Positions 8,929 to 36,000 of a DNA stretch of 64,000 bases are shown here, piece after piece. This stretch comes from a virus (taxonomy: Duplodnaviria; Caudoviricetes). The notes beneath the pieces are model-generated. The model saw only the letters and a program-made list of their open reading frames with translations. It did no database searches and was not told the DNA's origin. The stretch spans positions 64,001-128,000 of the IMG/VR virus record IMGVR_UViG_2710264778_000001. One strand, 5' to 3'. Each line of letters begins with the position of its first letter. Position 1 is the first letter of the stretch. The position numbers were made by a program, and so were the translations under genes.

Positions 8929-8930
8929 TA

Positions 8931-10097: not shown

Positions 10098-10220
10098 TTC
10101 AATCTACCTCACTTTTATTATTATAATTTGTTTTCCTGTCTTCCATGATTCTATTATATATCATCTGTACGTATAAAGTCAACAACTTTTAAAAATAAAT
10201 TATAATTAAGTATAAAATTT

Positions 10221-10409: not shown

Positions 10410-10563
10410 ATTATCAACCTCTTTATATATGATATTATTGTTTATATTACTATTAGTATTTAACTAAAGTATATATCTGTATGTATAAAATGTAAAGATA
10501 ATTATATTAATTAAATGTATAGAAAAAGGGATTATAAACCCCCTTAATTAAATCTATATTGAA

Positions 10564-10905: not shown

Positions 10906-10993
10906 TTTTAAACACCTCTAATTAAATTATTAAGGAGTTTTAGGTACTCCTTAAACCTTATCAATTTATATTTATTTTATCTTTATGTATTTA

Positions 10994-11470
10994 TTAAGCT
11001 AAACAAAAAGATCCTTGACTTTTAAAAGATTTACAACCATATTTATTCTTTATATCTTCATAAGTCATATTAGATTTACGACTGCACTTTTGATCTTCAG
11101 GACGATAATACCATTTAATTTTCTTTTTTGCCCAGTGCAAACCTAATTTACTAAGTTCTTTACTTATTACTTTAGTATTACCACCAACCCATATCCAAGT
11201 ACCAATGATATCTATTTCTAATCCTTCAAATCTCATTAAACCATTTATAATATCTTTATATATATTAATGTCTTCAACCTTTTCTGATTCATTTTTAGTG
11301 CTGTTTTGAAGTTGTTTGAAAAGTAAATCATATTCATTAACCATCATTTTAAATTCTGTATCAATACCATTATTTCTATCTGGATGTAATTGAAAAGCTA
11401 ACTTTCTATAAGCCTTTTTAAGTTCTTCCATTGATTCAACATTTACAAAATATTTCATATTAACAACCAC
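10994..11470 (-). CDS. J-domain (DnaJ-like) protein
   Basis: ELKKAYRKLAFQLHPDR with the HPD motif. Confidence 0.88.
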   Translation of the reverse strand: MVVNMKYFVNVESMEELKKAYRKLAFQLHPDRNNGIDTEFKMMVNEYDLLFKQLQNSTKNESEKVEDINIYKDIINGLMRFEGLEIDIIGTWIWVGGNTKVISKELSKLGLHWAKKKIKWYYRPEDQKCSRKSNMTYEDIKNKYGCKSFKSQGSFCLA

Positions 11471-11892
11471 CTTTTAATTATTTTTAATTTGTTTTGTCCT
11501 GTTAATATTATTATATACGTCTGTATGTATATAGTCAATATATTTTATTTATATTTACACTTTTATAAATTTATTAATAATATACACTATATTTTGTCTA
11601 TGTATTAATAAAAATTAAAAAACCTCTTTTGCTGCCTAGCCTTAAACCGTTGATATTACAAGTTTATATGTATTATTAAATTGTTAATTTGTTTTATTTA
11701 CTGGAATAATTGAATAAATAATAATTAATTTAATTGAAATATATTAAAGAACTCTATTAGGTTCAATTATATTAACGTTTATAGGCTCATAGAACGGTTT
11801 TAGGTTATTTATTAATATTTATACCTTTAATTGTTTACTGGTGTAATTAAGGCTATTTTAAAGCAAAAAGAAAAGAACCTCTTTCGAGATTC

Positions 11893-12159
11893 TTAGATAC
11901 TATACTTTTTAATTATCTCTTTATATTGTTTTAATCCTTTTGCATACTCTAAAGCTTTATTAACTAACTCTTGATCTTCTGCAATTCCTAAAGTGTTTAT
12001 AAAGTTGTCGTGTCCTGTAGATGTGTCATTGATCCAGTTTATTGAGTGTTTATTATCTATTATATTAAGTTCTATAGATACTTCTATCTTTCCTTTAATT
12101 GCTGTTATAAATAGCTTTTTTTTCATCTTTCTTGCGTATGAAAATTTAAAATCTTTCAT
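11893..12159 (-). CDS. Hypothetical protein
   Basis: AAGGAGG RBS. Confidence 0.65.
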   Translation of the reverse strand: MKDFKFSYARKMKKKLFITAIKGKIEVSIELNIIDNKHSINWINDTSTGHDNFINTLGIAEDQELVNKALEYAKGLKQYKEIIKKYSI

Positions 12160-12175
12160 TTCTTATAACCTCCTT

Positions 12176-12379
12176 TTATTTGTACATTGCTAAACTCTTA
12201 TTATATATTTTATTATATCTTAAAGCTAGTTTAATTGCTATTATCATATTGTTATAAGTTGTATTATATAATTTATATGTTTCTGTTGCCCAGTCTTTAA
12301 TATCTTTTATGCTGATCTCATATACGTCATTAACTTTCATAAAATTTATTATCTCTTTTGCAATTTGTATATTTTTCAT
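12176..12379 (-). CDS. Hypothetical protein
   Basis: AAGGAG RBS; operon context. Confidence 0.6.
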   Translation of the reverse strand: MKNIQIAKEIINFMKVNDVYEISIKDIKDWATETYKLYNTTYNNMIIAIKLALRYNKIYNKSLAMYK

Positions 12380-12413
12380 GTTTTAACAACTCCTTTTATT
12401 TCATTAATTTAGT

Positions 12414-12812
12414 TTAGTTTAAGTAATAACATTCTTCCCATGTATTAAAAAATACTTCCGCTTTACTTTTTCTAAGTCTTAATTTTTGTACCAATATATT
12501 ATCTTTAACTTCTTTTATTATATACTCTTCCATTGCTGTATTATTAGATTTTCCTAAGTTGCTTAATTCTATCTCTTTTCCACTGTTTTTAAAATTTAAA
12601 CAATATGTATATTTCAATTGATTATTTTTATCTAATACTTTAATTGTAAATAAAGTAATTACTACGCTTGAAGTTCTTCTGCTTAAAAAAGATGCTTTAC
12701 CGTTAACGCTAAATACTATTGTACCGTTGTTCTTGCAGATCTTAAAATCAGTTAAGCTGCTTAATCTTTCTCTTATATCTTGTGCTTTAACTCTTACATT
12801 TTCAATTCTCAT
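12414..12812 (-). CDS. Hypothetical protein
   Basis: 132-aa ORF with upstream promoter and RBS. Confidence 0.65.
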   Translation of the reverse strand: MRIENVRVKAQDIRERLSSLTDFKICKNNGTIVFSVNGKASFLSRRTSSVVITLFTIKVLDKNNQLKYTYCLNFKNSGKEIELSNLGKSNNTAMEEYIIKEVKDNILVQKLRLRKSKAEVFFNTWEECYYLN

Positions 12813-13114
12813 AAATACTCAACCCCTTAAATATTATAGTTTTCCGTCTGTCGTTATACTAATTATAGCATATATAAAAATAGATTTCAAACAAAATATA
12901 CACAAGTTTAAAAGAATTTTGCTATATATCAGCATTTAAAATTGATATTTTAATTGGTTGTAAATTTAAATTAATTAAAAGTCATCATGCCGTTTTTCTT
13001 TTGCCCTAGTGGTTTCTTTTGTCGGCAAGGTAGTAGAGTTTTTTAGTTGAGCTTTAGCGAAACTTAAACTGTACTAGTTGGTTATACAAAAGAAAAGAAC
13101 GTCTATAAGTACAT

Positions 13115-13206
13115 GGACAAAAATTGGTGTCTAAAATGAAATAAAACATCAACTCTATTATAATAGACTGAATCATTTATCACACTTCAGACACCAAAAA
13201 ACGTCC
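13115..13206. repeat. Symmetric inverted-repeat element downstream of the SF2-like gene
   Basis: GGAC...TTGGTGTCT and AGACACCAA...GTCC arms around a central palindrome CTATTATAATAG (13155-13166). Confidence 0.6.
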
Positions 13207-13212
13207 TTATAT

Positions 13213-14883
13213 TTATTTTGTTTTTCTTTCAATAATCCAATAAGTATCTTTTTGACCATTGATTGTTAATCTCTTACTATCTATTGCAAATGGTAGATTA
13301 ATCATCTTTAAACCTTCATTAATTTTGGTATAGCTTTTCTGTTGTCTTCCATTAACCCTTACATTTATTTTATCTATTAATTCTTTTTGTTGCTTTTTAT
13401 CAAGTGGAATTGTTTCTAAATCATTCAAGTAATTATATAGTTCTTCATTCTCATTCATTTTCTTTTTACTCTCCTTTATAATGGTTTTAAAATCATCATC
13501 TTTGTGTAGTATAAAAGTTCCTTTATTATTTGTAATTACTTTGAAGTTGGCACGTTCTAAATCTTTTTTAAATGTCTGCCATGTTGCTCTATGTTTATCA
13601 TGTGGAGTCATGCCATATTTATATACTAAATAATCCTTATCTTCTTTAGTTAGTTTAATATTTATATATTTATCCTCTATGAATTGTGCTATTAATGGAA
13701 TACCATAATATATGCCTGTTGGATGTTCGTTTTTATATTGATCATAATCTATTAGTTGTCCATCAGAGTCAATTGGTTCTTTTGTTAATAACATTTTAAT
13801 ATCATGTCTTACTCTATTTCTAGCTTGTACTTGAGTATCATATTTAGTTGTATCTATTAATACCCATTGCACTTTATTATCATATAAATTCCAACCAGTT
13901 TCATATGCTCCATTGATTATTAATATATCTAAAGTTTCAGGATATTGTCCATTATTTAATAAATATTCTCTTAATTCCAATTGGTTTTTATTCATTAAAC
14001 TTTCATTATTTATTCTATTGTTTGGACTGCATAACCATTCAACGTTATAACCATAACTAGATAGTAATTGTTTATACTTTTTAGCAACGGTCATTGTATT
14101 AGTGTATATCAACACTTTGTAATCTTTATCTTTTATCCATTTATAATTTATTCCTATTACTTTTATATAGTTAATTGAATTTTTACATATTCCATGATGT
14201 TCGTCTATATATCTTCTTATTCTCTTTAATTCGTTAGTATGAAATATAGTTCTATACATTATTGGATATTGTTGTAATGGATAATACATATTAGAAGGTG
14301 TTGCAGTCAAAGCTAATATTAATAGATTATTTTCGTTTAACATTGTTGGTAAGTACTCCAATATTATACTATAAGTTTTATTTGTTTCAGTATCAAATTT
14401 ATAAGCATATTTAATTAAGTTATGTATTTCATCCATTATGATACAGTTATAGTATTTAAATAATATTATTCTACTTGCTTTATTTTGTAATAGAAATCCT
14501 AATGTACTGTATGTAATTACTTTTATATAACCTATATCACCATCAAGTACGCTTTCTAATGTCTTATCCTTCATAGCCTGTTTAAGATCATTCTTTTCTA
14601 ATACCTTTGTTATTCCGTCAGTTTCTTTTAATATACTTGATTTTAACATTGTAGTATCACAGACATATAAAACTCTATCAAGATTATCAATATAATTATA
14701 AGATAATCCATTTACATATTGTTTTGAGTCTCTTAAAAATTCATTAAATATAAATGTACTCTTTCCACTTCCTGCATAGGCATTCATTATATTTAATACG
14801 CTTCTATCTAATTTCTTGTTAAATTCTTTCATAGCTTCATTAAGCCATAGTTTATTATTGTTATCTTCCATATTTATTATCAC
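13213..14883 (-). CDS. Divergent SF2 helicase-like protein (possible origin-binding/replication protein)
   Basis: AYAGSGKS, DEIH, LTAT, ETGWN and QARNRVR motifs. Confidence 0.8.
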   Translation of the reverse strand: MIINMEDNNNKLWLNEAMKEFNKKLDRSVLNIMNAYAGSGKSTFIFNEFLRDSKQYVNGLSYNYIDNLDRVLYVCDTTMLKSSILKETDGITKVLEKNDLKQAMKDKTLESVLDGDIGYIKVITYSTLGFLLQNKASRIILFKYYNCIIMDEIHNLIKYAYKFDTETNKTYSIILEYLPTMLNENNLLILALTATPSNMYYPLQQYPIMYRTIFHTNELKRIRRYIDEHHGICKNSINYIKVIGINYKWIKDKDYKVLIYTNTMTVAKKYKQLLSSYGYNVEWLCSPNNRINNESLMNKNQLELREYLLNNGQYPETLDILIINGAYETGWNLYDNKVQWVLIDTTKYDTQVQARNRVRHDIKMLLTKEPIDSDGQLIDYDQYKNEHPTGIYYGIPLIAQFIEDKYINIKLTKEDKDYLVYKYGMTPHDKHRATWQTFKKDLERANFKVITNNKGTFILHKDDDFKTIIKESKKKMNENEELYNYLNDLETIPLDKKQQKELIDKINVRVNGRQQKSYTKINEGLKMINLPFAIDSKRLTINGQKDTYWIIERKTK

Positions 14884-14905
14884 TAATCCTTTCTAATTTA
14901 AATCA

Positions 14906-15076
14906 CTAATTCAATTCATGTTTACACCATTTGTCAAAGAATGGTTTACTTGCCTGTTTATCAAATACAAATACCCAAGTATCAAACCCCCAAAAGACTT
15001 CTATTGGCTTTAATCCATGTTTGACATACATCTTAGCTTGTAGTTCATTAACTATCTTTACAGTATTATGGTTCAT
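14906..15076 (-). CDS. Small phage protein (56 aa, not in the ORF track)
   Basis: MNHNTVKIVNELQAKMYVKHGLKPIEVFWGFDTWVFVFDKQASKPFFDKWCKHELN with AAGGAAGTGA RBS and an upstream TTGACA-17-TATAAT promoter. Confidence 0.7.
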   Translation of the reverse strand: MNHNTVKIVNELQAKMYVKHGLKPIEVFWGFDTWVFVFDKQASKPFFDKWCKHELN

Positions 15077-15444
15077 TATCTCACTTCCTTTTATATTATA
15101 TTTTGTTTATGTATAATTCTAGTAATATCTATCTGTCAATCCTTATTATACTCTCATTGTTATAGTCTGTCAATTATTTATAATTTATCTTCATTAATAT
15201 ATAAGTATATTCAATTAGTATTGATATATTATATTGTATGGTCATTATTAGTCTTATACAATAGATTCATATTCATAGGTGTAATATGTTTAGTAAGTCT
15301 GTTATAATTGATTATAAGTCATGTATGAGAGTTGATTTATTTGTAGTTTATATCGTTTAATAGTAATGTTTATTACATGTAGTTATTAATACTATGTGAT
15401 AGTATATTTATATGTGTTTATTTAGTTGTTACTATTATAATATA

Positions 15445-15584
15445 TGTGTATAAGTATGTTTATTATGTGGATAACTTATTATAATTTGTTTGTGTTAAGT
15501 TGTTATATGTAGCGTTTATAATGGTTTAAGGTTATTTAATTGGGTTGTTAACTGTGGATAAGTCTGTGTATAACTTGTAGATAA
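15445..15584. promoter_or_regulatory. DnaA-box cluster
   Basis: TGTGNATAA (reverse complement of TTATNCACA) at 15445, 15466, 15553 and 15565; one-mismatch box at 15576. Confidence 0.7.
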
Positions 15585-16784
15585 GATGTTAATAGATTGT
15601 GATTAACTTATACTTTTATCCATTGTGGTTATATCTTTAAGTTGTAGTATGGTTGTTTAGTTGTATGCTGTCTAACGTCTTAGTAGTTGTATTACAACTT
15701 ATACTTATAGAGTTTAATATCTTCATTCACCATTGTTATTAATTGTAAGCTTATTACTATTTGTTAGTTGGTTACTTTTAGTAAGTAGATGTCTTTGTAA
15801 GGTAAACTCAACTTGCACACGAAGGTTTTGGTACTATAAACTTTTAATATTCGTATTTTCATTTCTTTAAAAAATTGATCTTGAAAATCTCACCAGATAA
15901 AACTGCTGACATATCTATATACTTTTTATCAATTCTTTTTAATTTATCTAGTACAAGTTATTTCGTTAAATAGAGATTTAGCGAAATTGACATAAAAGCG
16001 CATGGTTGAGCCATTCTTTGCGGTGGTGTTGTATATGGTTTAATTTAGGTATAGATAGGGGGCTAAAATACATTATTATGTTCAATATCTGAACGCTATT
16101 GAGGCCTATCACATCATGAAACCTATAGGGATAGTAGGTTAACGATTAACCCAAAACACGAACATTAAAGCCTAACCCTATTCGTAAAAGCTTTCGCAAA
16201 CACTAGTCATACCAACGCTTCACAAAATATTAACATCATAAAATCATCCTATTTTAAACATAAAAACCTACTCAACCCTAGTAAACAAGCCATATTGAAC
16301 GATATACATATAACTATACAATCAAATCACTATCGCTCTACCCTATCTAAAATAACTCTAAACCATTGAAAACACTAGCTTTATACATATTTCAATAACT
16401 ACCAAAATAACTAATCACGAAACATAGTTCTCGTTAATAAAAAAATATAATCCAACCCACCAAAATTTATAATCAATTTTAACCTATCTAACAGACTCTA
16501 TATTAAATAAAATTTTCACTCAATAACTATTACCTAAATTTAATTACACCCACTTTAAATCGTCTAATAAAAGCTGTCCTATTTCACTATCAATACAAAA
16601 AAACAAGACCATTGAAAATAAATCCAATAGTCTCAATATATAATAATAAAGATTAAATAATATTAAAATACACTTACACGTTTAATTATATCCAATCGTC
16701 CCAAACATTGCTACAAGTATGTTTTTGAATAAATAACGGTATCTGACAAGGAGGGGCATAATTTACAAATTTAACTTTTATGGT

Positions 16785-17081
16785 CTATACATTACTTATA
16801 GTTGTATTATTTAATTTGAATAAATCAACGCAACTATCTAAACCATAGTTATAAGCATTAATGCAATCTAGATTATAATTCAAATACATTTCAGATGATA
16901 AATAACCAATAAATAAAATAGCTAAGGCATAAATATATTTTCTATGGTTGATCAAGTAACTCATTGATTTGTTTTTATTTAATCCTATGTTTTGTAATTT
17001 AATATCTATTAAAGTTATTTGGCTGTTAGAATATTTTTTATATTGACTTATTGACATTACAGTTTTCATTCTACATTTCAC
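16785..17081 (-). CDS. Hypothetical membrane protein
   Basis: One hydrophobic segment; RBS. Confidence 0.5.
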   Translation of the reverse strand: MKCRMKTVMSISQYKKYSNSQITLIDIKLQNIGLNKNKSMSYLINHRKYIYALAILFIGYLSSEMYLNYNLDCINAYNYGLDSCVDLFKLNNTTISNV

Positions 17082-22230: not shown

Positions 22231-23349
22231 TTATTTTTTACCTAAATTCATGTATTTATCTCTAATAGACGAAGATTTTCTTCTTCCCTTTGTAGATGAA
22301 CTAGTTGTTTTTGATGTTTGAGTTGTCCTTGTATTAACTTTATTCATTGCACTGAAATCAATTTCTATATCATCTTCATTATTTTCTATACTTTGCTTTT
22401 CTGCTTCAGCTTTCTTATCCATTAAATCTTTATATGATTTTTTTAATTCTGTAATAACTTTATTATTAAAGCTAGTCCCAGATGAGATTAAAATATTTGT
22501 TTCTTCATCCCAAACTGAATCATGTGTAAAGGTTGGATATCCAAATAAATCTCTAACTAATTCAATATTGATATCCTTTTTGTGTTTTTTGTTTAAAATC
22601 ATACCATCATATTTAGGATTTTTTAGAGGTTCTACATATATGCTTTTGTTTACTGCATCACTTAAACCATTTCCAAAATCTTCATTAGCAAATTCTAATA
22701 TAGTCATAAATCCAGGAGTTGTTAATAATACTTCTAACTCATTTTCGTCTAGATTTCCATCAGCAGTAATATGATCATAATTTAATAATCTTGACATCGT
22801 GATTGCAAAATCTCTATTAATATCCATCTTATTTTCTCTTGAATTATTATCAAGTAATTGAATATTAGTAATTAATCCTTTACCATCATTATATGCTTCT
22901 TTTAATTGTTCTAAACTTTGAATAGCATTACCTTGCATTCCTAGGTCTTCATTTGATTTAGGAATTACAGTTACAACATTTGCTACTTTACCTTCCTCAC
23001 CATACAATTCAGAGAATGCTTCAGCTAAAATTCCTCCCATTGTTCCACCAGTTCCGCCTGAAAGTGTGTAGATGAAATAGTAAATCGTTGCATTAGCATA
23101 TCTTTCATATATTTTTCTGCAAATTTTATCTATAGTATCATCTTGCGTTATAACTTCTATGGCATATTGTCTGTTCTTTGCCATACCCTTCATACCATCA
23201 ATATGATATTTATTTTTAATATTAGTTTCAATTGTATCAAGATCTTCTAATGAACTATTTATATAGAATGCGTTAAACCCTTCTTTTTCTAATTCTCTAA
23301 CTATATTAGAACCGCCTTGTCCTATACCTATAAATACTGTTTCTACCAT
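22231..23349 (-). CDS. tubZ: Tubulin/FtsZ-like partition GTPase TubZ
   Basis: GIGQGG, SGGTGG signature loop, NLDENE T7-like loop and a basic C-terminal tail; adjacent to tubR- and tubY-like genes. Confidence 0.88.
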   Translation of the reverse strand: MVETVFIGIGQGGSNIVRELEKEGFNAFYINSSLEDLDTIETNIKNKYHIDGMKGMAKNRQYAIEVITQDDTIDKICRKIYERYANATIYYFIYTLSGGTGGTMGGILAEAFSELYGEEGKVANVVTVIPKSNEDLGMQGNAIQSLEQLKEAYNDGKGLITNIQLLDNNSRENKMDINRDFAITMSRLLNYDHITADGNLDENELEVLLTTPGFMTILEFANEDFGNGLSDAVNKSIYVEPLKNPKYDGMILNKKHKKDINIELVRDLFGYPTFTHDSVWDEETNILISSGTSFNNKVITELKKSYKDLMDKKAEAEKQSIENNEDDIEIDFSAMNKVNTRTTQTSKTTSSSTKGRRKSSSIRDKYMNLGKK

Positions 23350-23351
23350 TT

Positions 23352-23699
23352 CTAATCCTCCTCAATATCATTTTCATTTTCTTTTAATAATTTTTGAATA
23401 TCTTCATCACTTAGGTTATGTGCTGTTTTAAAATTTTCAATACCTAAAGGACTAATATAATACGTTTTAAACTGTCCATCTTTTGTACCTTCTAAAATTA
23501 AGCCAGTTATTAAAAAACTTTTTATTACGCTTCTTATCTTCGATGATGATAATTCTGTTAAATTCATCAACTGTACTCTATTTAAAGAAGCCATTGGGGA
23601 AACACAATTATTGGCTATTAATTCTTCTAATACTTTGTAATCTCTTTTATTAAATAATTCTGACATAATATCACCACCTTGTTGACTAAATAATACCAT
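23352..23699 (-). CDS. tubR: TubR-like wHTH adaptor (start probably MSELF)
   Basis: Small wHTH gene immediately upstream of tubZ, as in type III partition loci. Confidence 0.7.
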   Translation of the reverse strand: MVLFSQQGGDIMSELFNKRDYKVLEELIANNCVSPMASLNRVQLMNLTELSSSKIRSVIKSFLITGLILEGTKDGQFKTYYISPLGIENFKTAHNLSDEDIQKLLKENENDIEED

Positions 23700-24085
23700 T
23701 TACAATATAGCTTGTCAATAATGTATTATTATTCTTTTTATATTTTATATTAGTAATATATTAACTATATATAAGTTTTGTGCATGTTATATTAGTATTT
23801 CTATTACAAAGTGCTAATACAATGTACTCATAGTATTTGAATAATGCTTATACAATAACTACAAACTGCTTATATAATGCTTTTATAATAATTACACTAT
23901 TTACTTATAAAACCAACAGTATATAGTTATATTGTGTTCATAATATACTCACTAATTCAAGTAAACTAAAGTTATAGTTGAGTTTTTATAAAGTAAACTA
24001 TATTTATAGTAAAGAATAATTAAACTAAAGTCTATCTCTACCACTAAAAATTTAAAGTAAATTCTATTGTGTAATTTACTTTAAA
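23700..24085. promoter_or_regulatory. Candidate tubC centromere / divergent promoter region
   Basis: AT-rich interval with repeated AGTAAACTA/TAAACTAAAGT and TGCTTATA units, plus the inverted repeat AAAGTAAATT...AATTTACTTT. Confidence 0.45.
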
Positions 24086-24086
24086 T

Positions 24087-24896
24087 TTGTTATACTATAA
24101 TTATAGTTTAATTAAATGGAGGTTTAGAATATTGAGTAAAGATATAATTGATGTTGATTTTATAGATATCGGAAAAGAAGTGTTTTTAACAGCTCCAGAT
24201 GTTGCTAGAGAAATTCCAGATGATGAAAAAAGGGTGAGATACTGGGGTGATGTTTTTGGTGATATAAAAAAATGTGGTGTATATAAGATAGACGGAAGAA
24301 AAAAATATACTAAACAAACGATAAAAGCATTTAAAGTTATACAAAAATTAATTGATGACAAACAATTTACTCATGCACAAGTTCGAGATTATATATCTAA
24401 AAATGGATTTGAATATATATTAGACAATAAGAATGACTTATCTAAAGATTTAATAGGATACAATGGATTATCTAGTGAACTTTCTGTAGAGTTGGAACAG
24501 AAATTAAATGTTTTCCAAAAAAATATAAAAAATATGTTACTTGAACATGGAGAATTTCTAAAAAATGATATAAAAGAACAAGTAGCATTAACTGTAGATG
24601 AAGTTGTTTCTGATAAATTAGAACCGTTTAAGATTGATTTGAAGAATGATATTAAAGGCAATCTTGAAGAATTTAATAGTGATAATAAAAAATCATCTGA
24701 TAGGTTATATGAACAAATAAATAGCAGGTTTAACGATTTAGACAAAAAATCAGAAGAACGTGATTTAAAATTAGTGGAAAAATTAAGAGATGATACTAAA
24801 GATGCTAAAATTAAAGCTTTAGAATTAGAAATTGAACAATTAAAATCTAATCAAAATCAAGGATTTTTTGAAAGAATATTTGGTAAAAAGAAATAA
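24087..24896 (+). CDS. tubY: TubY-like protein (MerR-like HTH, coiled coil, amphipathic tail); true start probably ~24132
   Basis: RVRYW...GRKKYT HTH, a long coiled coil and C-terminal GFFERIFGKKK. Confidence 0.75.
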   Translation: MLYYNYSLIKWRFRILSKDIIDVDFIDIGKEVFLTAPDVAREIPDDEKRVRYWGDVFGDIKKCGVYKIDGRKKYTKQTIKAFKVIQKLIDDKQFTHAQVRDYISKNGFEYILDNKNDLSKDLIGYNGLSSELSVELEQKLNVFQKNIKNMLLEHGEFLKNDIKEQVALTVDEVVSDKLEPFKIDLKNDIKGNLEEFNSDNKKSSDRLYEQINSRFNDLDKKSEERDLKLVEKLRDDTKDAKIKALELEIEQLKSNQNQGFFERIFGKKK

Positions 24897-25057: not shown

Positions 25058-25389
25058 CAGAGAAATTTGGGAGACTTATTTTAAAATGCATTTTATGTGT
25101 ATATATGTAATATTAATATAAGATTACATATATAACACACATAGAATGTATTTATGTATTACAAGATTTTCTCAATTTTAATAGTTACAATGCTTTAAGG
25201 TAGTTATTCACAAGTTAAATATGGTGCAATTTAGGACTTCAAACAGAGTAATTTGGGAATCAAGTAAGAGAAAATTGGGATTGCAACAGAGAAATTTGGG
25301 TGATATTATATAAATATGTAATTTCATAAAAACAGAGTTATTTGGTATTTAAAACAGAGAGATTTGGGAGGAGGACAGAGTAATTTGGG
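25058..25389 (+). repeat. Rep_3 iteron origin with a DnaA box
   Basis: CAGAGWAATTTGGG-like units at 25058, 25244, 25266, 25287, 25333, 25355 and 25376 (21-22 bp period); TTATTCACA at 25204-25212. Confidence 0.88.
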
Positions 25390-26560
25390 AAAAGAACATC
25401 AAGAAAAAGTTTATGAACAATTAGCTTTAAATATTCAACCAATGGAGACAGATACCTATGTATATAAGTCTCATAATCTTATTGAGAGTGGGTATAACTT
25501 TACTCTTAACGAACAAAGATTGACATATTTGGCCAGTAAAAAACTAAAACCAAGATATATAAAGTCTAACATAAAACCTTCACAAATGAAGACTTTTTTA
25601 GCAAATGAAACATTTAAGGATTTAAGAATTTATGTAAATGAATTTAAGGATGCATTTGATTTAAAAAGTAATAACCTATATAAAGTTTTAGCTGATACGG
25701 CACATAGTCTTAAACAAAAGAATATTCAATATCTACAAGATGATGGGGTGTTTGTTGAAAAGAGTTGGGTTATAACAAGTAAATACAATCCTGAAGGTAA
25801 ATATGTTGACTTAACATTCCATCCAGATTTGATACTTGATTTATTAGTTATAAAGGGTAGATTTGGAAAGATGGAATACAATGCGACTAAGAAATTTACA
25901 ACGTCTTATGCATTTAGAATCTATGAGCTATTGCAGAATTATGCTTATAGGGGGTTTAGAAGATTTGAGTTAGAAGATTTAAGATATAAGTTAGGTATAT
26001 ATGATGATAATAAATATAAACAATTTAGTGATTTTAAAAAATATATATTAAACCCTTCAATTGAATCTATTAATCAATCTACTAGTCTAGATATAAATTT
26101 TAAAGAATTAAGATATGGTAGAAAAGTTGGAGCTATTGAATTCTATATCTCCCAAAAAACTCTGATTTCACAAAAAATAGATGATGATATAGATGTTGTA
26201 GATCAATCACAAGTAGAAGAAATGGAGAAAAGAGTAGGTTGTACATTAACAGCAGGTACAGTAGCAACATTAACCAATATGGCTATAGAATCAATTAAAA
26301 AACATAAAATTGATATGAGTTTTTATCAATATATTGAATATGAGATGGAAAGAGTAAGAGAATACTCAAAACAAACTACTATAAAAAATGTTGTTAGCTG
26401 TCTTAAAACCGCACTAAGAGAAAATTGGGGAGAAGAAATTTCTATCCCAAAAAATTCTGACTTTAATAACTTTGATGGTAGGGATTATAATTATGATGCT
26501 TTAGAAGAAATGGCGTTGGGTTATAAAGATTATAATCCAGATGAGTTATATAACAAATAG
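25364..26560 (+). CDS. Rep_3-family plasmid replication initiator (start probably TTG at 25385)
   Basis: KSHNLIES.YNFTLNEQRL, SYAFRIYELL, FSDFKKYILNPSIESIN and GRKV..IEF motifs; iterons upstream. Confidence 0.92.
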   Translation: MGGGQSNLGKEHQEKVYEQLALNIQPMETDTYVYKSHNLIESGYNFTLNEQRLTYLASKKLKPRYIKSNIKPSQMKTFLANETFKDLRIYVNEFKDAFDLKSNNLYKVLADTAHSLKQKNIQYLQDDGVFVEKSWVITSKYNPEGKYVDLTFHPDLILDLLVIKGRFGKMEYNATKKFTTSYAFRIYELLQNYAYRGFRRFELEDLRYKLGIYDDNKYKQFSDFKKYILNPSIESINQSTSLDINFKELRYGRKVGAIEFYISQKTLISQKIDDDIDVVDQSQVEEMEKRVGCTLTAGTVATLTNMAIESIKKHKIDMSFYQYIEYEMERVREYSKQTTIKNVVSCLKTALRENWGEEISIPKNSDFNNFDGRDYNYDALEEMALGYKDYNPDELYNK

Positions 26561-26846
26561 TCTTACATCAAATTCATTTATTAAAACACAAAATAACGTC
26601 TAAATTTGCCCTTTAACAGCTTAAGAGGTATTATGTGTCGCCTAACTACTAAAATTGAAATTTGAGCCTTTAAAACGCATTTTAAGCCTATATAGAATTA
26701 TATGTGAGTGTAGTATTAATTATTACACTCTTTTTGTTATTTAAAATAAAAATTCTGAATATTAATGAGTCAAGTATAATAAAAACAAAATATAACTAAG
26801 TTGACAAATATATAACCATGGTGTAATATGGTAAATAGGATAGGAG

Positions 26847-27773
26847 GTGAGAGAGTTGAAAATAGAAAACAACAGTACATTCGTAATGATAGACGATAAA
26901 TATATAAAAGATGGAGACTATATACTAACCAGTGAACAACTAACTATATTAACTTTAGCAAGTATGAATTTATCATGTAAGGGAACTTGTACTATTTCAA
27001 TAACTTGGATAATGGACATGCTTAATTATTCTAGGAATAACAATAGAAAAGTAAATGATATAAAATTAATACTACAACAACTGATAGATGATAATGTTAT
27101 TGAACTATATAAAAATGTACTCAATGATTATAAAGAAAACAAAATAAATAATATAGAATCTATTGATAGAAATGATTTTTTGTATTGCTATATTCCAGAT
27201 GTTGTTGATTACACAATAATATACGATCTTGAAATATTAGAACTACTAAAAATAGCTAATACATATAAATTAGATACATATTCATTAATTAATTTTGTAT
27301 TGTATATATACTCATTTATAAATAATAGCGAAACTGATGAAGATTATAAATTGTGCTATCCATCATTCAACAATATATCAGATACAATTGGAATAGGTGA
27401 ATCAACTATAGTAAAATATACAGACATATTACAAGCTAATGAGATTTTATATTGTGATTATGCTGGTTATAAGGAAACAACTAAAGGACAAATCAAGAAT
27501 TCTAAAATGTTCTATAGCAGATATATGGATATTGAACTACTAACTAATAGAGTAAATAGATATAGAGAACAAAATGGATTTATAAAATTAAATAAACTAA
27601 GCAAGAACAAATCCAATATAAAAAGAAGCCTAAAGCAAATGATAAATACATTAGAAAATAAAATAAATGAAAATACAATAACAAATTTAGAACAAGAAAG
27701 ATTGAAATTACTACAAGAAGAATATAACAAACTAGAAAAACAAGACAAAGAAAACAAAAGTCAAAGTGAGTAG
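26847..27773 (+). CDS. Tandem wHTH Rep-like protein B (intact paralog of A)
   Basis: LCYPSF...IGESTIVKY HTH; end-to-end similarity to restored gene A. Confidence 0.85.
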   Translation: MRELKIENNSTFVMIDDKYIKDGDYILTSEQLTILTLASMNLSCKGTCTISITWIMDMLNYSRNNNRKVNDIKLILQQLIDDNVIELYKNVLNDYKENKINNIESIDRNDFLYCYIPDVVDYTIIYDLEILELLKIANTYKLDTYSLINFVLYIYSFINNSETDEDYKLCYPSFNNISDTIGIGESTIVKYTDILQANEILYCDYAGYKETTKGQIKNSKMFYSRYMDIELLTNRVNRYREQNGFIKLNKLSKNKSNIKRSLKQMINTLENKINENTITNLEQERLKLLQEEYNKLEKQDKENKSQSE

Positions 27774-27789
27774 CGTTTCAGCTACGAAG

Positions 27790-28030
27790 ATTCTATCTTG
27801 TTATTAATTTATATTGATAGTTAATTTATATATTTAATTAATCTATATGGTTATTTAATTTATATATTTACACTCCTATCATGATTAAAAAATGGGGGTG
27901 CAGTTTTTCAAAAGTGTCATTTGCGTGTGCAAGTTTAGGTATAAATATACCTTTATCGGGTGCAAGGTTTAAGGGTAATACCCCATAATCGGGTGCAAGA
28001 AAAGACAAAAAAGTGCTTTATCGGGTGCAA
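27790..28030. repeat. AT-rich tract plus iteron-like array B
   Basis: TTAATTTATA units, then GTGCAA at 27927, 27960, 27993 and 28025 (ATCGGGTGCAA x3), 32-33 bp period. Confidence 0.72.
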
Positions 28031-28086
28031 ATGAATTTAGAGTGCAATAAAGATAAAATATACATAAGTGAAAGGAAGATAATTAA

Positions 28087-28770
28087 ATGAATAAATACAA
28101 AATAAGAGGAATATATAAAATAACAAACTTAATTAATGGTGAAGTTTATATAGGAGAATCTCTGGACATATACAGGCGTTGGGAAGAACATAAGGAGGAT
28201 TTAGAAAATAATAAACATCATAGTTATAAGTTGCAAACTGATTGGAATACTTATGGAGCAGATAACTTTAAGTTTGAAGTAGTGACAATACTTAGTGAAG
28301 ATATTGATAATTTTATAGATAAATACATTTTGCTTGTTTATGAGGATAAATATATACAAGAATATAATAGTATTAATAATGGATATAATATTGAAAATAC
28401 TTTAGAACAAGTTTTAAATGGAGATAAAATAATAATAAATGAAAAAGATAATTTATTATTAGAAGGTTGGATGTTAAAAGAAAGACTAGGAAAATTAATT
28501 AATGAAAACAAAGTCATTAGAAAAATAAATAAAAAGATTAAATATTTTAGCACAGCAGATATAGAAAGAAAACTTAAAATCAATTATCAAAATTTAATTG
28601 ATATACTATTAAATGAAAATATAATATATCAAATTAGAAGAAAACAAAAGTTAAATTGTGAGTATCAGAATGAGAAATATGCTGTAAATTATGATGAATA
28701 TTTACCAAGGATAAAATTTACTAGAGAAGGTTTTGATTTATTGTATAATACTGTTAAGGATAAAATATAA
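28087..28770 (+). CDS. GIY-YIG endonuclease with a KilA-C/ANT-like C-terminus
   Basis: GIYKI...VYIGES...RRW..H; C-terminal KFTREGFDLL. Confidence 0.85.
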   Translation: MNKYKIRGIYKITNLINGEVYIGESLDIYRRWEEHKEDLENNKHHSYKLQTDWNTYGADNFKFEVVTILSEDIDNFIDKYILLVYEDKYIQEYNSINNGYNIENTLEQVLNGDKIIINEKDNLLLEGWMLKERLGKLINENKVIRKINKKIKYFSTADIERKLKINYQNLIDILLNENIIYQIRRKQKLNCEYQNEKYAVNYDEYLPRIKFTREGFDLLYNTVKDKI

Positions 28771-29032
28771 TTAAGTTAAAGTAAAGAATATAAATATTAT
28801 GAAAAATCCAATAAATCTGTGATTTTATATAGATGTAAACAAAATATAAATAAGTATTTGACAGATAAAATAAATTATGGTAATATAGTATTTGTAAGGA
28901 GGTGAAAAACATGGTAATTGAGTTTGGTATAAGCATAAATGAATTATACAATAATAAATTACATATAAAATTAGGCTAGGTAACTGCCAAGCTTTAGCTT
29001 GTGCAGAGGAATAGCCCTTTGAGGAGAATAAA

Positions 29033-29452
29033 ATGAAACAATATAGAGAAAATGATAAATATTATTCGAGTGAACATTTAGTTTTTCGTTGTAGTTATCA
29101 TATAGTATTTTGTCCTAAATATAGACATAAAATATTAGTAGGTAAAGTTTCAGATAGATTAAAAGAAATTTGTATAGAAGTTTCTAAAGCTTATGATTTT
29201 ATCATAGAAGATATTGAAACAGATAGAGACCATATTCACATGATAATAACTTGTAATCCTAGATTTGGTATTTGTAAATGTGTCTCTTTAATAAAACAAA
29301 TTTCTGCTCATAGATTATTTGAAGAATTTCCATATATAAAACGTAATAAATTATGGGGAGGAAAGTTTTGGAGTAGGTCAACTTTTATTGCTACTGTAGG
29401 AAGCGTAAGCCTAGAAGTAGTAAAGAAATATATTGAAAATCAAGGTAAGTAA
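29033..29452 (+). CDS. tnpA: IS200-type Y1 transposase
   Basis: Identical protein to 4472..4891. Confidence 0.97.
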   Translation: MKQYRENDKYYSSEHLVFRCSYHIVFCPKYRHKILVGKVSDRLKEICIEVSKAYDFIIEDIETDRDHIHMIITCNPRFGICKCVSLIKQISAHRLFEEFPYIKRNKLWGGKFWSRSTFIATVGSVSLEVVKKYIENQGK

Positions 29453-29455
29453 TAT

Positions 29456-29484
29456 TTGACAAATTATACTAAAAAGAGTATAAT
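29456..29484 (+). promoter_or_regulatory. Consensus sigmaA promoter for tnpB (also 4440-4468 on the minus strand)
   Basis: TTGACA-17 bp-TATAAT. Confidence 0.85.
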
Positions 29485-29534
29485 TATATTAGTAAACAAA
29501 ATATATTATATAAAACGAAAGGAAGTGAATATTT

Positions 29535-30977
29535 ATGGCGAAAACAGATAGTTATGTATTAACTTTAAAGCTTAAAACAAATAAATCAGAAATAGTGGCA
29601 TTAGATAAATACTTTGAATTATCAAGAAAACTATACAATGCTTTACTAGATGAAGGATTAAGAAGATTTAGACTAATGAGAGAATCTAAATTATATCAAC
29701 AAGCAAGAATAGAAACTGATAAGAAAACTAAATCTAGTTTATTTAAACAAGCAGAAGAATATGCTAACTATGATAAATTTGCTTTAAATAAATATTCAAC
29801 TTCTTTAAGAGTTAATGAATTTAAAGATATAGATGCAAATACAGTTCAAGCATTATCTGCTAGAGTTATAAAAACAATAGATAGAATGAGATTTGGAAAT
29901 GCTAAACGAGTTAATTTTATTAGATACAATGAAATGTATTCTATCGAAGGATTAACTAATAGACAAGGAATTAGATATAGAGATGGTAGAATATATTTCA
30001 ATGATTTAATTTTAGAATGCGTTGTTAGAAATAATGATGAATATGCACAATTAGCATTACAGGATAAAATTAAATATTGTAGAATAATAAGAAAACAAAA
30101 GGGAAATAGAAATTTATATTATGTTCAATTAGTTTTAACAGGAATACCACCTAAAAAAAGAGATATTGGACAAGGTGAAGTTGGGCTAGATATTGGAACT
30201 AGAACAGTAGCTATTGTATCAGATAATGAAACTAAGTTATTAGAATTAGCTGAGGGAATTAATAATATTCAAAAAGTTAAAACTAGATTATCTAGAAAAT
30301 TAGATAGACAAAGACGTGCTAACAATCCTAATAAATATAATGAAGATGAAACAATTAATATTCATAATAGAGATAAATGGATTAAATCCAAGAATTATAT
30401 TAAAACTCAAAATAAACTAAGAGATATTCAAGGAAAAATGGCTAGGATTAGAAAACAATCTCATGAAGAACTAGCTAATTATGTTTTATCTTTAGGAAAT
30501 ATAATAAAAGTCGAAACTATGAATTATAGTGGATTACAAGCTAGAAGTAAAAATACAACTATAAATGAGAAGACAGGCAAATTTAATAAAAAGAAAAGAT
30601 TTGGAAAGAGTCTAGCAAACAAAGCGCCGAGTATGTTTTTAGAAATACTAAATAGAAAATTAAAATATGAAAGTTTATGGTTATTTAAAGTTAATACTTA
30701 TAAAGTTAAGGCTAGTCAATATAATCCATTTACTGATGAATATATTAAAAAGAAATTATCTCAAAGATGGAATGAGTTTGAGAATTGCAAAATACAAAGA
30801 GATTTAATGAGTGGTTTAATAATAAAGAATGTAATAATAGATGATAAAATGAAATTAGATACAATAGATAGAGATAAATTACTAAGTGAATTTGATAGTT
30901 TTAAAACATTGCATGATATTGAAATAATAAGAATTAAAAATAGTGATAATAGATTAATTTCAAGTATGGGAATATAA
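29535..30977 (+). CDS. tnpB: RNA-guided endonuclease TnpB
   Basis: Identical protein to 2947..4389; D/E/D RuvC triad present. Confidence 0.93.
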   Translation: MAKTDSYVLTLKLKTNKSEIVALDKYFELSRKLYNALLDEGLRRFRLMRESKLYQQARIETDKKTKSSLFKQAEEYANYDKFALNKYSTSLRVNEFKDIDANTVQALSARVIKTIDRMRFGNAKRVNFIRYNEMYSIEGLTNRQGIRYRDGRIYFNDLILECVVRNNDEYAQLALQDKIKYCRIIRKQKGNRNLYYVQLVLTGIPPKKRDIGQGEVGLDIGTRTVAIVSDNETKLLELAEGINNIQKVKTRLSRKLDRQRRANNPNKYNEDETINIHNRDKWIKSKNYIKTQNKLRDIQGKMARIRKQSHEELANYVLSLGNIIKVETMNYSGLQARSKNTTINEKTGKFNKKKRFGKSLANKAPSMFLEILNRKLKYESLWLFKVNTYKVKASQYNPFTDEYIKKKLSQRWNEFENCKIQRDLMSGLIIKNVIIDDKMKLDTIDRDKLLSEFDSFKTLHDIEIIRIKNSDNRLISSMGI

Positions 30978-31190
30978 TTAATAATAAAAATTGCAAATAA
31001 AAAAGGTATTAGAATCGTGCCTTTGTCGTTAATTTTCTAAATATAGAAATTGGCAAGAAAGTCTAATGATAATTAATATAATAGACTAAATGTTGTAAGA
31101 TATAGATGATAACAATGCTATAAATGAGAGTTAGTAAGAGTATTAATTAATTTAGAACCGTCCAACCTTTAGGTTGTGACGAGTATTCAG
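30978..31190 (+). ncRNA. Predicted TnpB omegaRNA scaffold, copy 2
   Basis: Lies between the tnpB stop and the right end. Confidence 0.6.
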
Positions 31191-31395
31191 AGATTTAATC
31201 AATTAAAAATTAGATATTTTGAACAGAATATATCTGAAACAGAAGAAATTGAGTTGAATAAGCTACAAAACTGGCTTAAAATACATAATAACTAGTAACA
31301 AAAATAAAATATAACTAAGTAAATTAAAATTAGGAGGAGATTAAAATGATTGAAAAATTAACTAAAACAAATGAAGAAAGGTATGGTATAAAGTA

Positions 31396-33019: not shown

Positions 33020-36000
33020 ATGTCTAAGCAATTGTATAGTCCAAGATTTATATTAAAAATTCAATCATCTAGATTAAAAGAAAATGATTGGTCATTGGAT
33101 ATAAATTTACAGGAAGCAAGAGACAAAGAAGAATTAATTCAATTGGGAGATAGTCAAATATTAAGGTTTATAAGAGAATTAACTAATATGAATTATTCAG
33201 AAAAAGAAATAGAAGAAGTTAAAGAAAAAATAAATGAACTAAAAAAAGAAAAGTCATGCAAAGCCAATAAAGAAAAAATAAAAGAACTATATAAAGATTT
33301 AGATGAAATGTTATACATAAAAGACTATGTGTCTATAGTATTTGATAAAAAAGGTGATTTCGATAGAGCAACTAATAAAAATGGATTTAAAATAAATAAT
33401 AAAAAATTCAAAAGAATAGTTGGAACTACAGGGGGAGTAAAAAACAACACAGTTAATTTTTGTAGCGAAGAAATATACGAACAATTAAATGAAAAAATGG
33501 ATTGTGGAAGAAATAAAGAAATACCTATAGTTCCTGCAAAGTTAGAAGCATATAGAGCATTAAGTGCCAGTGTTTCAACACCAGTAACACAAACTAGAAG
33601 GATTTTAGTTATAAAAGATGGAGTAACAAATATAAAAGATAAAGTAATTAAAGTTAGTGATAATGGTGATGATTATAAAGTTGAATATGGAATAGATTAT
33701 GAATCTGAAAAAGAATTTTGTGATGGTTGTGGGATGATTAGACCAACATTATCTGAGCAATGGGCAATAGATTTAGGTTTATATCACGAAGATGAACAAG
33801 GATATAAGGTTGCTAATTATATACCAAGTGGATTTAATACAAGATATGCCTTTGAAAAAGGAATGCTTTGTACATATGACTTTGAAATGTTTGGGGAAGA
33901 AATAGCTAAAAATTATATGGTTAAAGATGCATGGGGCAATGAACAGGATATAAGAAAGATAGATATTATATTTACTACAAATATGCTAAAACTTTGGAAT
34001 GCTTATGATAGCATAGAAGATTATCTAGATAATTGTGAAAAATATGGATATTTACTAAGTGTGACAAAAGTAACTCCTAAAAAGTTAGAATTAAAAAGAA
34101 ATATGAATTATCAATACTTACAAAGTTATGAGTTTTCAGATGAAGATATAAAAGAATTATGTTCAGAAACAGTAAATAATATAAATGATGTATTAGGATT
34201 AGACATAGCAAAAACAGTATTGTTTTCAAAAGGAATAGATATAACAAAAGATAATGTATCTAATGGGGGATATGATTTCATAAAAGCATTAACTATAAGT
34301 GATAAGGTATTAGAAGATTCATATGTTAAAAATAAAATATATAATATGATAAAAAAAAGAATACGAGAAGCTAAAAAAGGAGTTATACAAGTAGATGGTT
34401 GTTATTCAATAATCTGTGGAGACTTATATGCTTTATGTCAATATATGTTTGGTTTAGAAGTGACAGGATTATTAAATAAAGGAGAATTCTATAGTAAAAC
34501 ATGGACAGACAAAGGAGTTTATGAAATAGTATCATATAGAAGCCCTATGACATCACATAATAACATAAGTAAAAAGAAGTTGATAAGTAATGAATTAACT
34601 GATAAATGGTTTAAATACATAAAGACAATGACAATATTTAATGCTTGGGATACAACTTGCGATTCAATGAATGGTGCTGATTAACAAAATGGTCGTCTAT
34701 TATGGAAACATAGTGGAGTATTACACCTTAAACTGCTCAAATTCCCTAAAGATTTATACACTACAACGTAGATAGTGATATCAAGCGTGAATGTAGCGAA
34801 AGCAGAAAAAAGTATAAATATATCCTATGCTGAAATAAAAGCCTTATATAAGGTGCTAAGGGTGTTGTAATGGGTAATGTAGCATGGATGTTATCTCAAT
34901 GAGATAATCCTTCAACGACTATAAAGGTGTACCTTAACAGATAATGCTGATGGTAAAGGAATAGTCTACTCCCCTGATAAATATCGGGAAACCGAGGGTA
35001 TAAAGGTTTGATAGTGATGCAGAAATAGAAACTAATAATAAAATAATATTAAAAACAACAAAAAAAGAATTACCAATAATTTGTGAACAGAAATCTACTC
35101 CAAAAGTAAAAGTCACAGAAAATAAATTAAGATTATCAAATAAAAATGGATTTGGAAATGCAGTAGGATCAATAACCAATAGAGTAACTACAATGTTTGA
35201 TGTATTGGCTTCATTAGAAAAAGATTCAAAAGAATATAAAGAATTAAATAGAAGAATAATATGTGGCCAAGCACTACAACAGGAAGAAATTGATAAAATT
35301 AAAGGAATTCAAGCGAAACAAATGCCTAAAACATGGTATGATTACAAAATTAATAAAATACTAGAAGATGATTCAGAAGATATAAAGAGACAAAAAGAAT
35401 TCAATTTAAAATTAGTAGTAAATAAAAAGCCATATTTCTTTATATATAATTATAAAAATATTCAAAGTAAATACAATGTATTTATGAAGAATGTTGAGAA
35501 TAATTGTATAATAAGATTTGGGTTAAGTTTAAATGAGTTAAAAAACAAACCAAATAAGAATGAAGATGAAATAAACTTTCTAAAATCAGTTAAATATAGA
35601 AGTCCAGTTTTTGAAAATCCTAGTGCTATGAATAAAATATGTTGGTATATAGAAGACGTATTTAGAAATATTAAATTAAAAACTAATAAAGATGAAAAGG
35701 GATTTGATAAAAGTATATATATGACAACCTCTAAAAAATATGAAGGTAAAAAAGAAGAAATTAAAGAATTGTTTAATGAATATAAAAGCATACAATCACA
35801 ATATATGGTTGAAAAAGGAAAAACAGTAGATAAAGAAGAAAAGAAAAACAAGAGAGAAGAGTTTGTAAATAACTTTAAACAAAAAGCTATAGAGATATAT
35901 TCTAACAGTGAAGATTTATGTAATGCCATAGTTTATACTTTATATGACATAAAAGCCAATAGACAGTTTGTATGGGATATATGTGGAGAACAAATGATAA

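Follow-up and report, generated by a model that had tools for sequence, protein, structure and literature searches.

We analysed 64,000 nucleotides (positions 64001-128000; hereafter the window) of IMG/VR virus record IMGVR_UViG_2710264778_000001, a 229-kb record of a clostridial phage carrying plasmid-maintenance genes. The record has a GC content of 25.8%, and the genome is 74% AT. Our subject is a pair of genes in it, A (5352-2221, minus strand) and B (plus strand), and the origin-like DNA that directly follows each of them. An earlier note on this DNA had proposed that the two are cassettes of an unrecognised or selfish replicon, in which a winged-helix (WH) protein would act on repeats 3ʹ of its own gene.

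Genes A and B and the DNA behind them

Genes A and B are indeed paralogs, with 64-66% identity: the B protein matches the N-terminal piece of A (4945-5352) at 64% over 132 amino acids (aa) and the C-terminal piece (2221-2748) at 66% over 164 aa. Gene A is split by a 2,226-bp insertion sequence (IS) that has the marks of the IS200/IS605 family, namely a Y1 transposase, a TnpB-type open reading frame (ORF), no target duplication and a fixed short target; both IS copies read within the window come after the same ...ACATA. In the copy at 29033-30977, identical to the gene-A element, Y1_Tnp matches with E 1.7e-40 and OrfB_IS605 with E 1.8e-4, the latter below the Pfam cut-off. When the element is deleted in silico, A is rejoined in frame as an uninterrupted 301-aa ORF with no other defect, and the insertion therefore appears to be recent and A otherwise undamaged. 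Hence, as the earlier note had it, one copy is IS-split and the other, B, is the sole intact family member in the genome.

The order of elements behind both genes is the same (Table 1): a hairpin at the stop codon, GATTCTATCTTG and further 17-bp AT-rich units, an ACACT box, phased repeats (iterons) and an end box. The hairpin, whose stem differs in the related locus L008 (ATAGC/GCTAT), presumably acts as a terminator. The ~210-kb genome has just two copies of GATTCTATCTTG, at 27789 (+) and 2182 (-). This sequence had been read as a separate box ahead of the AT-rich tract; it does stand behind both genes, but it is the first unit of the 17-mer array. Tandem Repeats Finder reports 17-bp units in both tracts (4.0 copies at 27803-27870 in B, 4.6 copies at 2113-2190 in A), as well as a 33-bp period over the B repeats. 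Tract B is 91% AT over 70 bp, which is the 99.9th percentile of the genome, and tract A is 83% AT, the 92nd percentile. The consensus is ACACT(C/T)(C/T)(T/A)ATC(A/G)TGA for the ACACT box and TGCAAATGAA(A/T)TT... for the end box. Within the genome, the GATTC, ACACT and end boxes are each confined to the A and B loci.

The iterons differ between the two arrays. The whole genome has three copies of core CGGGTGCAA, all of them in array B (27957, 27990 and 28022; 0.07 expected); with the fourth, variant repeat, whose core is CGTGTGCAA at 27924, the spacing is 33/33/32 bp. Array A has core CATGTGCAA at 1953, 1985 and 2018 (-) and once in inverted orientation at 2060 (+); this core, too, is absent from the rest of the genome (0.76 expected). 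When the whole genome was scanned for 9-mers that recur at 31-34 bp, arrays A and B were the top two 150-bp scan windows, with a score of 12 each, and the next best scores 3; one of the windows with a score of 3 (~23841) lies beside the tubR-tubY repeats described below. Motif counts, Tandem Repeats Finder and the phasing scan thus bear out the two central observations of the earlier note, a shared downstream architecture with an AT-rich tract and three to four repeats at 32-33 bp, and repeat cores that are unique to their arrays. With at least three phased direct repeats and an AT-rich element adjoining the predicted initiator gene, this is the architecture of an iteron-type theta origin. The small palindromes that had been reported between the repeats are present in both arrays (AGGTATAAATATACCT at 27937-27952 and GGGTAATACCC at 27973-27983 in B; GGGTATAACCC at 2000-2010 in A), but an alignment of homolog loci shows no conservation of them elsewhere in the family. 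A Megablast search with 25300-28900 against phages and plasmids gave no match, and IMG/VR scans for exact pairs of A- or B-type iterons found only unrelated, higher-GC phages without a homolog of the gene.

The ORF of gene B, which had been given as 26847-27773, is real, but translation more likely begins at TTG 26856 than at GTG 26847, because a Shine-Dalgarno sequence, AGGAGGTG, sits 7 nt ahead of the TTG and because the database form of the protein has 305 aa.

Predicted fold, sequence family and related loci

An AlphaFold2 model of the B protein, built with 18 homologs (pLDDT 86.4, pTM 0.83), has two WH domains, WH1 (residues ~10-120) and WH2 (~125-230), followed by a long C-terminal helical hairpin (255-307). 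All 12 Foldseek hits in the PDB with E ≤ 1e-3 are RepE entries (probability 1.0, ~245 columns), comprising co-crystals of RepE54 with iteron DNA and the RepE complexes 8aan and 8ac8, which contain double-stranded iteron DNA and single-stranded DNA of the DNA-unwinding element (DUE); π of R6K (2nra) ranks lower in the list. A structure search independent of Foldseek puts π at the top (Z 8.1 over 184 aa, model residues 9-228) and gives RctB domains 2-3 a Z of 6.9, and a second look at the structure yielded RepE at Z 9.1 over 190 aa, π at Z 8.1 and RctB at Z 7.6. Matches in a viral structure library are named “Replication protein O”, COG5527 plasmid-replication-initiation protein and “Replication initiator protein”. 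The predicted structure thus upholds the winged-helix assignment of the earlier note and has the WH1-WH2 arrangement of RepE and π.

Sequence searches give a different picture. A Pfam scan (E ≤ 0.1) of the B protein and the C-terminal piece of A found only sub-threshold HTH_36 (PF13730; 18.7 bits for B and 23.0 bits for the A piece, against a gathering threshold of 25) and no Rep3_N or Rep3_C (PF01051, PF21205). The HTH_36 match covers only the helix-turn-helix of WH2, and several close homologs carry a precomputed PF13730 hit. PHROG family phrog_186, “DnaD-like helicase loader”, matches the N-terminal piece of A weakly (E 0.002, 91 residues), and neither the proteins of the window nor wider family members match Pfam DnaD or DnaB_2. 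A Protein Atlas search returned unnamed clusters and HTH_36 only, and tblastn of B against phages gave no match. The family as a whole comprises 252 clusters at 50% identity (E ≤ 1e-3) from large clostridial phages and plasmids. Among 80 diverse members, 30 match HTH_36 at E ≤ 1e-3, six match phrog_186 and none matches Rep_3; the PHROG matches of wider members are mostly to replication initiation protein, O-like or DnaD-like families. In its predicted fold, the B protein resembles a RepE/π-type initiator, and by sequence it lies outside Rep_3. The term “unrecognised” that had been applied to the replicon holds insofar as no Pfam or PHROG model scores above threshold for this subfamily, and literature searches found no publication on the family; the kind of system, however, is well known.

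For comparison we used nine IMG/VR loci and five metagenome loci, four of which appear to duplicate IMG/VR ones. They represent seven further lineages with 37-64% identity, and in all of them (loci L006, L007, L008, L009, L010/11, L012/13, L014 and L019) the gene is directly followed by a GATTC-type start, AT-rich units with a period of ~17 bp and repeats specific to the lineage (Table 1). The spacing of these repeats is mostly 32-34 bp or double that, and in six of eight loci the phased 8-mers are 5- to 87-fold enriched relative to the rest of the locus. The repeat sequence therefore follows the protein lineage; the absence of downstream arrays from homolog neighbourhoods, which the earlier note had set in advance as grounds for abandoning its proposal, was not what we found. 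In an alignment of the five closest loci, the scaffold is conserved and the iteron cores vary, with a common T(G/A)CAA 3ʹ half and a changing 5ʹ half. A genome-contig scan found no relatives, and single-protein scans with wider members P0032 and P0029 also found nothing.

Variation in the cores has a possible counterpart in the protein. Residues 192-193 of the WH2 recognition helix are TD in the B clade, whose core is CGGGTGCAA, NN in A and L008, and I/L-D in L006 and L007. The two NN loci share C(A/G)TGTGCAA cores (CATGTGCAA/CGTGTGCAA), and L006 and L007 have other cores. This is suggestive of recognition-helix residues that track the iteron core, in a sample that is far too small.

Family members recur in two genomic contexts. 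In the A type, which is the widely conserved arrangement and is seen in A, L006, L007, L008 and L019, the order is a 63-aa protein, the initiator, the origin and a superfamily 2 (SF2) helicase. In the B type, the gene and its origin follow a plasmid-maintenance block of tubZ-tubR, a TubY-like gene and a Rep_3 gene. The order TubZ, MerR-type protein, Rep_3, family member and origin recurs in L014, where the family member is only 42% identical. In a maximum-likelihood tree, the B clade is sister to A plus L008 (support 98/94) and lies inside the helicase-linked genes, far from L014. Hence B has the appearance of a helicase-type cassette that reached the maintenance region by copying or transfer, and the slot that it occupies there is the one held in L014 by a distant family member. 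These settings are conserved replication/partition synteny, and the suggestion that the cassettes are selfish finds no support in them.

Table 1. Features of the A and B loci and their surroundings (window coordinates unless a locus is named), and repeats 3ʹ of the gene in related loci (L numbers)
Feature	Position	Strand	Details
Gene B, intact predicted initiator	26847-27773	+	308 aa from GTG 26847; 305 aa from TTG 26856
Promoter-like site for gene B, TTGACA-17-TAATAT	26801-26829	+	10/12 consensus matches; consensus match only
Small hairpin GTAGC-N6-GCTAC, 5-bp stem	27770-27785	+	overlaps B stop codon; read from sequence
AT-rich tract B, candidate DUE	27789-27870	+	4-5 tandem 17-bp units opening with GATTCTATCTTG
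ACACTCCTATCATGA box B	27870-27884	+	between AT tract and iterons; kept in L006-L008
Iteron array B	27923-28030	+	variant GCGTGTGCAA at 27923; exact ATCGGGTGCAA three times, at 27955, 27988, 28020
End box TGCAAATGAATTTAGAGTG	28026-28044	+	overlaps last B iteron, ahead of next gene; kept in A, B, L006, L007, L008
GIY-YIG homing-endonuclease gene	28087-28770		slot directly after origin B
Gene A, 5ʹ part (WH1)	4959-5352	-	
IS200/IS605-family element, 2,226 bp	2733-4958	-	TnpA 4472-4891, TnpB-like ORF 2947-4389; inserted after ...ATACATA in gene A
Gene A, 3ʹ part (WH2 and C-terminal helices)	2221-2732	-	
AT-rich 17-bp tandem tract A	2113-2193	-	opens with GATTCTATCTTG (2182-2193)
ACACTTTAATCGTGA box A	2098-2112	-	
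Iteron array A	1953-2068	-	direct TCATGTGCAA three times, at 2018, 1985, 1953, spacing 33/32; inverted TCATGTGCAA 2059-2068 (+)
SF2 DNA helicase gene	278-1894	-	directly downstream of origin A; ResIII, Helicase_C; phrog_16 E 3e-87
Gene for 63-aa protein	5387-5578	-	directly upstream of gene A; 84-90% identical in L006-L008
tubZ	22231-23349	-	
tubR candidate	23352-23699	-	read from position; no family match
MerR-type TubY-like gene	24087-24896		divergent from tubZ/tubR
Rep_3 replicon, repeats and rep gene	25058-26560	+	just upstream of B
Terminator-like hairpin of Rep_3 gene	26706-26730		precedes B promoter-like site; only such hairpin in that stretch
L012 GIY-YIG/NUMOD endonuclease	3861-4916 (L012)		
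L013 GIY-YIG/NUMOD endonuclease	6300-7355 (L013)		
L006 repeats			TTTAAAAA(G/A)GTGCGT-type, core less clear; 33 bp
L007 repeats			two TGTATGTGGT(C/G)AA(G/C)AC and two inverted TTGGACACATACAA; 32 bp
L008 repeats			CATGTGCAA / CGTGTGCAA / CGTGTGTAA; 32 bp
L009 repeats			TAGGTATGGTTTT; 76 bp, and long inverted arms
L010/11 repeats			TTTCTACAATTTGA; 32 bp
L012/13 repeats			ATTTATTAGTATCTA; 64 bp, inverted copy 33 bp past first
L014 repeats			GCTAAAC(A/G)ACT; 34 bp
L019 repeats			TTATCACT core (CTGGCTTATCACT / CTGATTTATCACT); 65 bp, and inverted pair

A candidate initiator-origin pair and its rivals

What is the function of these genes and of the DNA behind them? From the modelled fold and the pattern of repeats, we consider it quite probable that A and B are paralogous modules, each made up of a gene for an iteron-binding initiator and the cognate origin directly 3ʹ of it. 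By analogy with RepE and TrfA, initiator monomers would bind the three to four iterons, whose spacing of 32-33 bp corresponds to three helical turns and would place them on one face of the DNA. The bound complex could then melt the adjoining, 17-bp-periodic AT-rich tract, possibly holding one of its strands, and would go on to recruit a helicase, either the phage SF2 helicase encoded by the neighbouring gene (A type) or the replicative helicase of the host. The “loop-back” model for RepE, with its double-stranded and single-stranded DNA, is the template for this mechanism (PMC10602881). The initiator of A would have been switched off by the recent IS200/IS605 insertion; we infer that B is the only functional initiator of its family in the genome and that A is currently off.

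The concerted AT-to-GG change in the three exact B iterons, combined with changes in the WH2 recognition helix, may have given the two cassettes separate specificities and so have allowed them to coexist in one genome. Separate specificities would avoid titration or handcuffing between the two origins. A still wider scenario is doubtful when taken as a whole: a helicase-linked, lytic-type cassette would have been copied to the maintenance region and re-tuned, by the 2-bp iteron change and residues 192-193, to the point of no cross-talk. The two cassettes would then serve separate maintenance and lytic programmes, the precisely excisable IS would be a reversible off-switch on the lytic initiator, and the family would be the missing initiator of large Clostridium plasmids, including those of C. 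botulinum.

Several observations weigh against the proposal of two initiator-origin modules, or limit it. The cores of A and B are 2 bp apart and the first B repeat, CGTGTGCAA, is intermediate between them, so cross-recognition is possible; because of this, we judge a difference in specificity between the cassettes, for which the concerted 2-bp change argues, to be evenly balanced between true and false. L009 lacks 32-bp phasing, and phasing in L014 is weak. The only link between B and RepE or π is a predicted structure: Z values of 8-9 with a root-mean-square deviation of ~5.5 Å are convincing for the two-WH arrangement, and a common fold is no proof of a common function. A profile search of PDB sequences returned nothing at E ≤ 10, and when the family profile was compared by hhalign with the Rep_3 protein encoded next to B, the probability was 0.2, which shows no relation between the two. 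The last iteron borders directly on the upstream region of the following gene, so that a regulatory role is possible. Since the genome also has a Rep_3 replicon and a cluster of DnaA boxes, B need not be the origin that is used. The minimum of the cumulative GC skew (~22-24 kb) coincides with the divergence of gene orientation at tubR/tubY; we have not counted it, because it does not distinguish between origin B and the Rep_3 iterons, which are 2.5 kb apart.

Could the B protein instead be mainly a transcription regulator, with the phased repeats as operators for the downstream gene (the helicase in the A type)? In A, B, L006-L008 and L019, the start codon of the following gene does come 40-60 bp after the last iteron and the end box. 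Repression is a common role of winged-helix proteins, and Fur/PerR-type regulators are among the single-domain structural matches (Z 6-8). However, these align over only ~85 residues of one domain, whereas the two-WH initiators match over ~190. There is no convincing σ70-type promoter over the arrays, and the architecture is kept in B, L012 and L013, where a homing endonuclease rather than a helicase comes next. Operators would also leave the conserved, 17-bp-periodic and extremely AT-rich tract unexplained. We therefore consider a mainly regulatory protein unlikely; Rep initiators commonly autoregulate, and the roles of regulator and initiator could thus coexist. An accessory role, in which B would be a DnaD-like organiser or loader for the Rep_3 initiator and the repeats a secondary loading or enhancer site of a composite origin, would fit the recurrence of Rep_3 followed by a family member in L014 and the weak phrog_186 matches of the N-terminal piece of A and of the wider family. 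Nevertheless, between rep and B there is a terminator-like hairpin as well as a separate promoter-like site, and the majority of family members, namely A, L006-L008, L019, L012/13, L009 and L015 (a C. botulinum plasmid locus described below), keep their own repeats and AT tract without a nearby Rep_3 gene. The structural match to DnaD is also poor (9a5c_B in Foldseek, TM 0.17, E 0.044), and we regard such a role as very unlikely.

P1 has iterons downstream of repA that serve control. The arrays 3ʹ of genes A and B might likewise, in the manner of incA of P1, serve copy control or incompatibility by titrating or handcuffing the initiator, with the origin located elsewhere. A place for it would be a 1.9-kb ORF-free region 12 kb away (window 14884-16785), which has an abrupt switch from G/T-rich to C/A-rich on the plus strand. 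It also contains the densest cluster of DnaA boxes in the genome, two perfect (TTATCCACA) and three with one mismatch, co-oriented within 140 bp (15445-15584; the candidate origin would be at 15.4-15.6 kb), and one iteron-like site. This is the lone related site to which the earlier note had drawn attention: TCGTGTGCAA does exist, at 15813-15822 (-), and has 12 nt (CGTGTGCAAGTT) in common with the first B repeat. Comparison with relatives gives it no support, however, because the homologous non-coding regions of three related phage contigs contain no copy of their own iteron; the DnaA boxes are kept in only one of the three (G004). The site may be due to chance or specific to this lineage, and we have left it out of the system. 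Moreover, the genome has no second array of the same iterons that could act as the origin, and every array stands beside an AT-rich periodic tract of the kind typical of unwinding elements. Copy control as the main function of the arrays is, in our judgement, highly improbable.

If A and B are initiator-origin modules, how do they compare with known systems? Like RepE of mini-F, π of R6K and Rep_3 initiators, the predicted system pairs a tandem two-WH protein with direct repeats on one face of the DNA, beside an AT-rich unwinding element. It differs from them in that B has no detectable sequence homology to these proteins, carries an extra C-terminal helical hairpin (255-307) and belongs to a family linked to an SF2 helicase; in addition, the iterons are 32-33 bp apart (22 bp in the neighbouring Rep_3 replicon), the AT units are 17 bp long and the origin is 3ʹ of the gene. 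As with λ O and the O-like/HTH_36 initiators, the protein is phage-encoded and the iteron sequence differs between related phages. The iterons of λ lie inside the O gene, and O recruits P-DnaB; here, in contrast, the origin is non-coding and 3ʹ of the gene. Several initiator-origin units in one genome are familiar from P1 (oriR/RepA and oriL/RepL), IncF plasmids (RepFIA/FIB) and SPP1 (oriL/oriR), and the phage described here resembles such multi-replicon phage-plasmids in having several units alongside a partition system (TubZ/TubR/TubY) and a plasmid-type Rep_3 replicon. Unlike in those cases, two of the units are paralogs whose iterons have undergone a small concerted shift, and an IS disrupts one of the two. 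The kind of replicon is therefore already known, and an origin 3ʹ of the gene has a precedent in the pathogenicity islands (SaPIs) of Staphylococcus aureus, in which the origin, with iterons and an AT-rich region, lies immediately 3ʹ of the rep ORF and Rep binds its cognate origin (PMC9371898). SaPI Rep, however, is a hexameric helicase that loads itself, has its WH domain at the C terminus and uses iterons of 5-6 nt, whereas the family described here has no ATPase domain, cores of ~10-11 nt at 32-33 bp and a helicase in a separate gene.

What is new is a sequence family with a conserved origin grammar of 17-bp units and phased iterons at 32-33 bp. New, too, are the two recurrent genomic contexts and, as far as the repeats and recognition helices indicate, a specificity-shifted pair of paralogs in one genome, one of them IS-split. 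The assignment gives a name and a candidate function to “hypothetical proteins” in ~250 clusters at 50% identity, predicts the origins of the family to the base pair and suggests a candidate replicon for large Clostridium plasmids without a typed Rep. The A/B pair offers a natural experiment on the drift of initiator-iteron specificity, with a 2-bp change in the core, few changed residues in the recognition helix and the rest conserved. With four origin-like elements (Rep_3, origin B, origin A and the DnaA-box cluster), the genome also presents a case for division of labour between replicons.

Neighbouring genes, plasmid homologs and the phage genome

The Rep_3 gene upstream of B (25364-26560) matches Rep3_N with E 3e-23 and Rep3_C with E 5e-16. 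Its repeats, six copies of CAGAGnRATTTGG (0.29 expected) at 25058-25388 with a partly 22-bp spacing, lie immediately ahead of rep and overlap its annotated start, and the true start codon is probably downstream of TTG 25364. The intergenic region between tubR and tubY contains 32-bp repeats (AAGTAAACTA..., 23959-24022) and long imperfect inverted repeats. It is a candidate tubC centromere, which would indicate a plasmid prophage lifestyle. We rejected the reading of the A and B arrays themselves as centromeres, since TubR has this repeat set of its own.

The 63-aa protein encoded next to the A-type initiators has diverged far less (84-90% identity) than the initiators have (61-75%), and it may act together with the replication module. 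In L012/13, a GIY-YIG/NUMOD homing endonuclease stands between the origin and a short helicase-like stretch that matches the last 69 residues of the helicase. With another GIY-YIG gene directly after origin B, homing endonucleases seem to have settled repeatedly at the origin-helicase junction.

Clostridium botulinum plasmids of 197-215 kb, for which PLSDB typing lists no replicon, carry a homolog with 31% identity that is flanked by a TubY-like gene and parB; here the candidate repeats and units of 17-18 bp precede the gene. In the C. botulinum locus L015 (NZ_CP013295.1 174906-187643), the homolog is at 5926-6771, and 18-bp tandem units (TATTAGTATATATTGTT, twice) and three TCCACAGGGATTAAC-type repeats lie upstream of its gene; the homolog may be the initiator of this plasmid. 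Clostridium sp. VAP52 has a further homolog, located on a contig of 176 kb; this agrees with a clostridial host and would allow for an extrachromosomal state.

The 229-kb record is redundant at its ends. Self-comparison shows that record positions 210205-226137 repeat 1-15928 at 99.9% identity, a 16-kb direct repeat at the two ends, and that the last 5.2 kb (223883-229129) are the reverse complement of 89965-95212 (99.5%). Both junctions fall at copies of one insertion sequence; hence the genome looks to be ~210 kb rather than 229 kb long, and circular or terminally redundant. A third copy of gene B at the end of the record, 99% identical and frameshifted, was rejected as a separate gene; it is probably an artefact of an assembly walk through the IS. 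The element has three copies in the record, 99.7-100% identical. The second (window 28966-31191) is in the opposite orientation and interrupts a small ORF starting at 28912, and the third is at ~13.7-15.9 kb of the record. Rfam and tRNA scans of the window gave no match. Elsewhere in the window, a 554-aa ORF (33020-34684) matches the Pfam family RdRP (PF05183, E 2e-11), which identifies it as a YonO-like single-subunit RNA polymerase.

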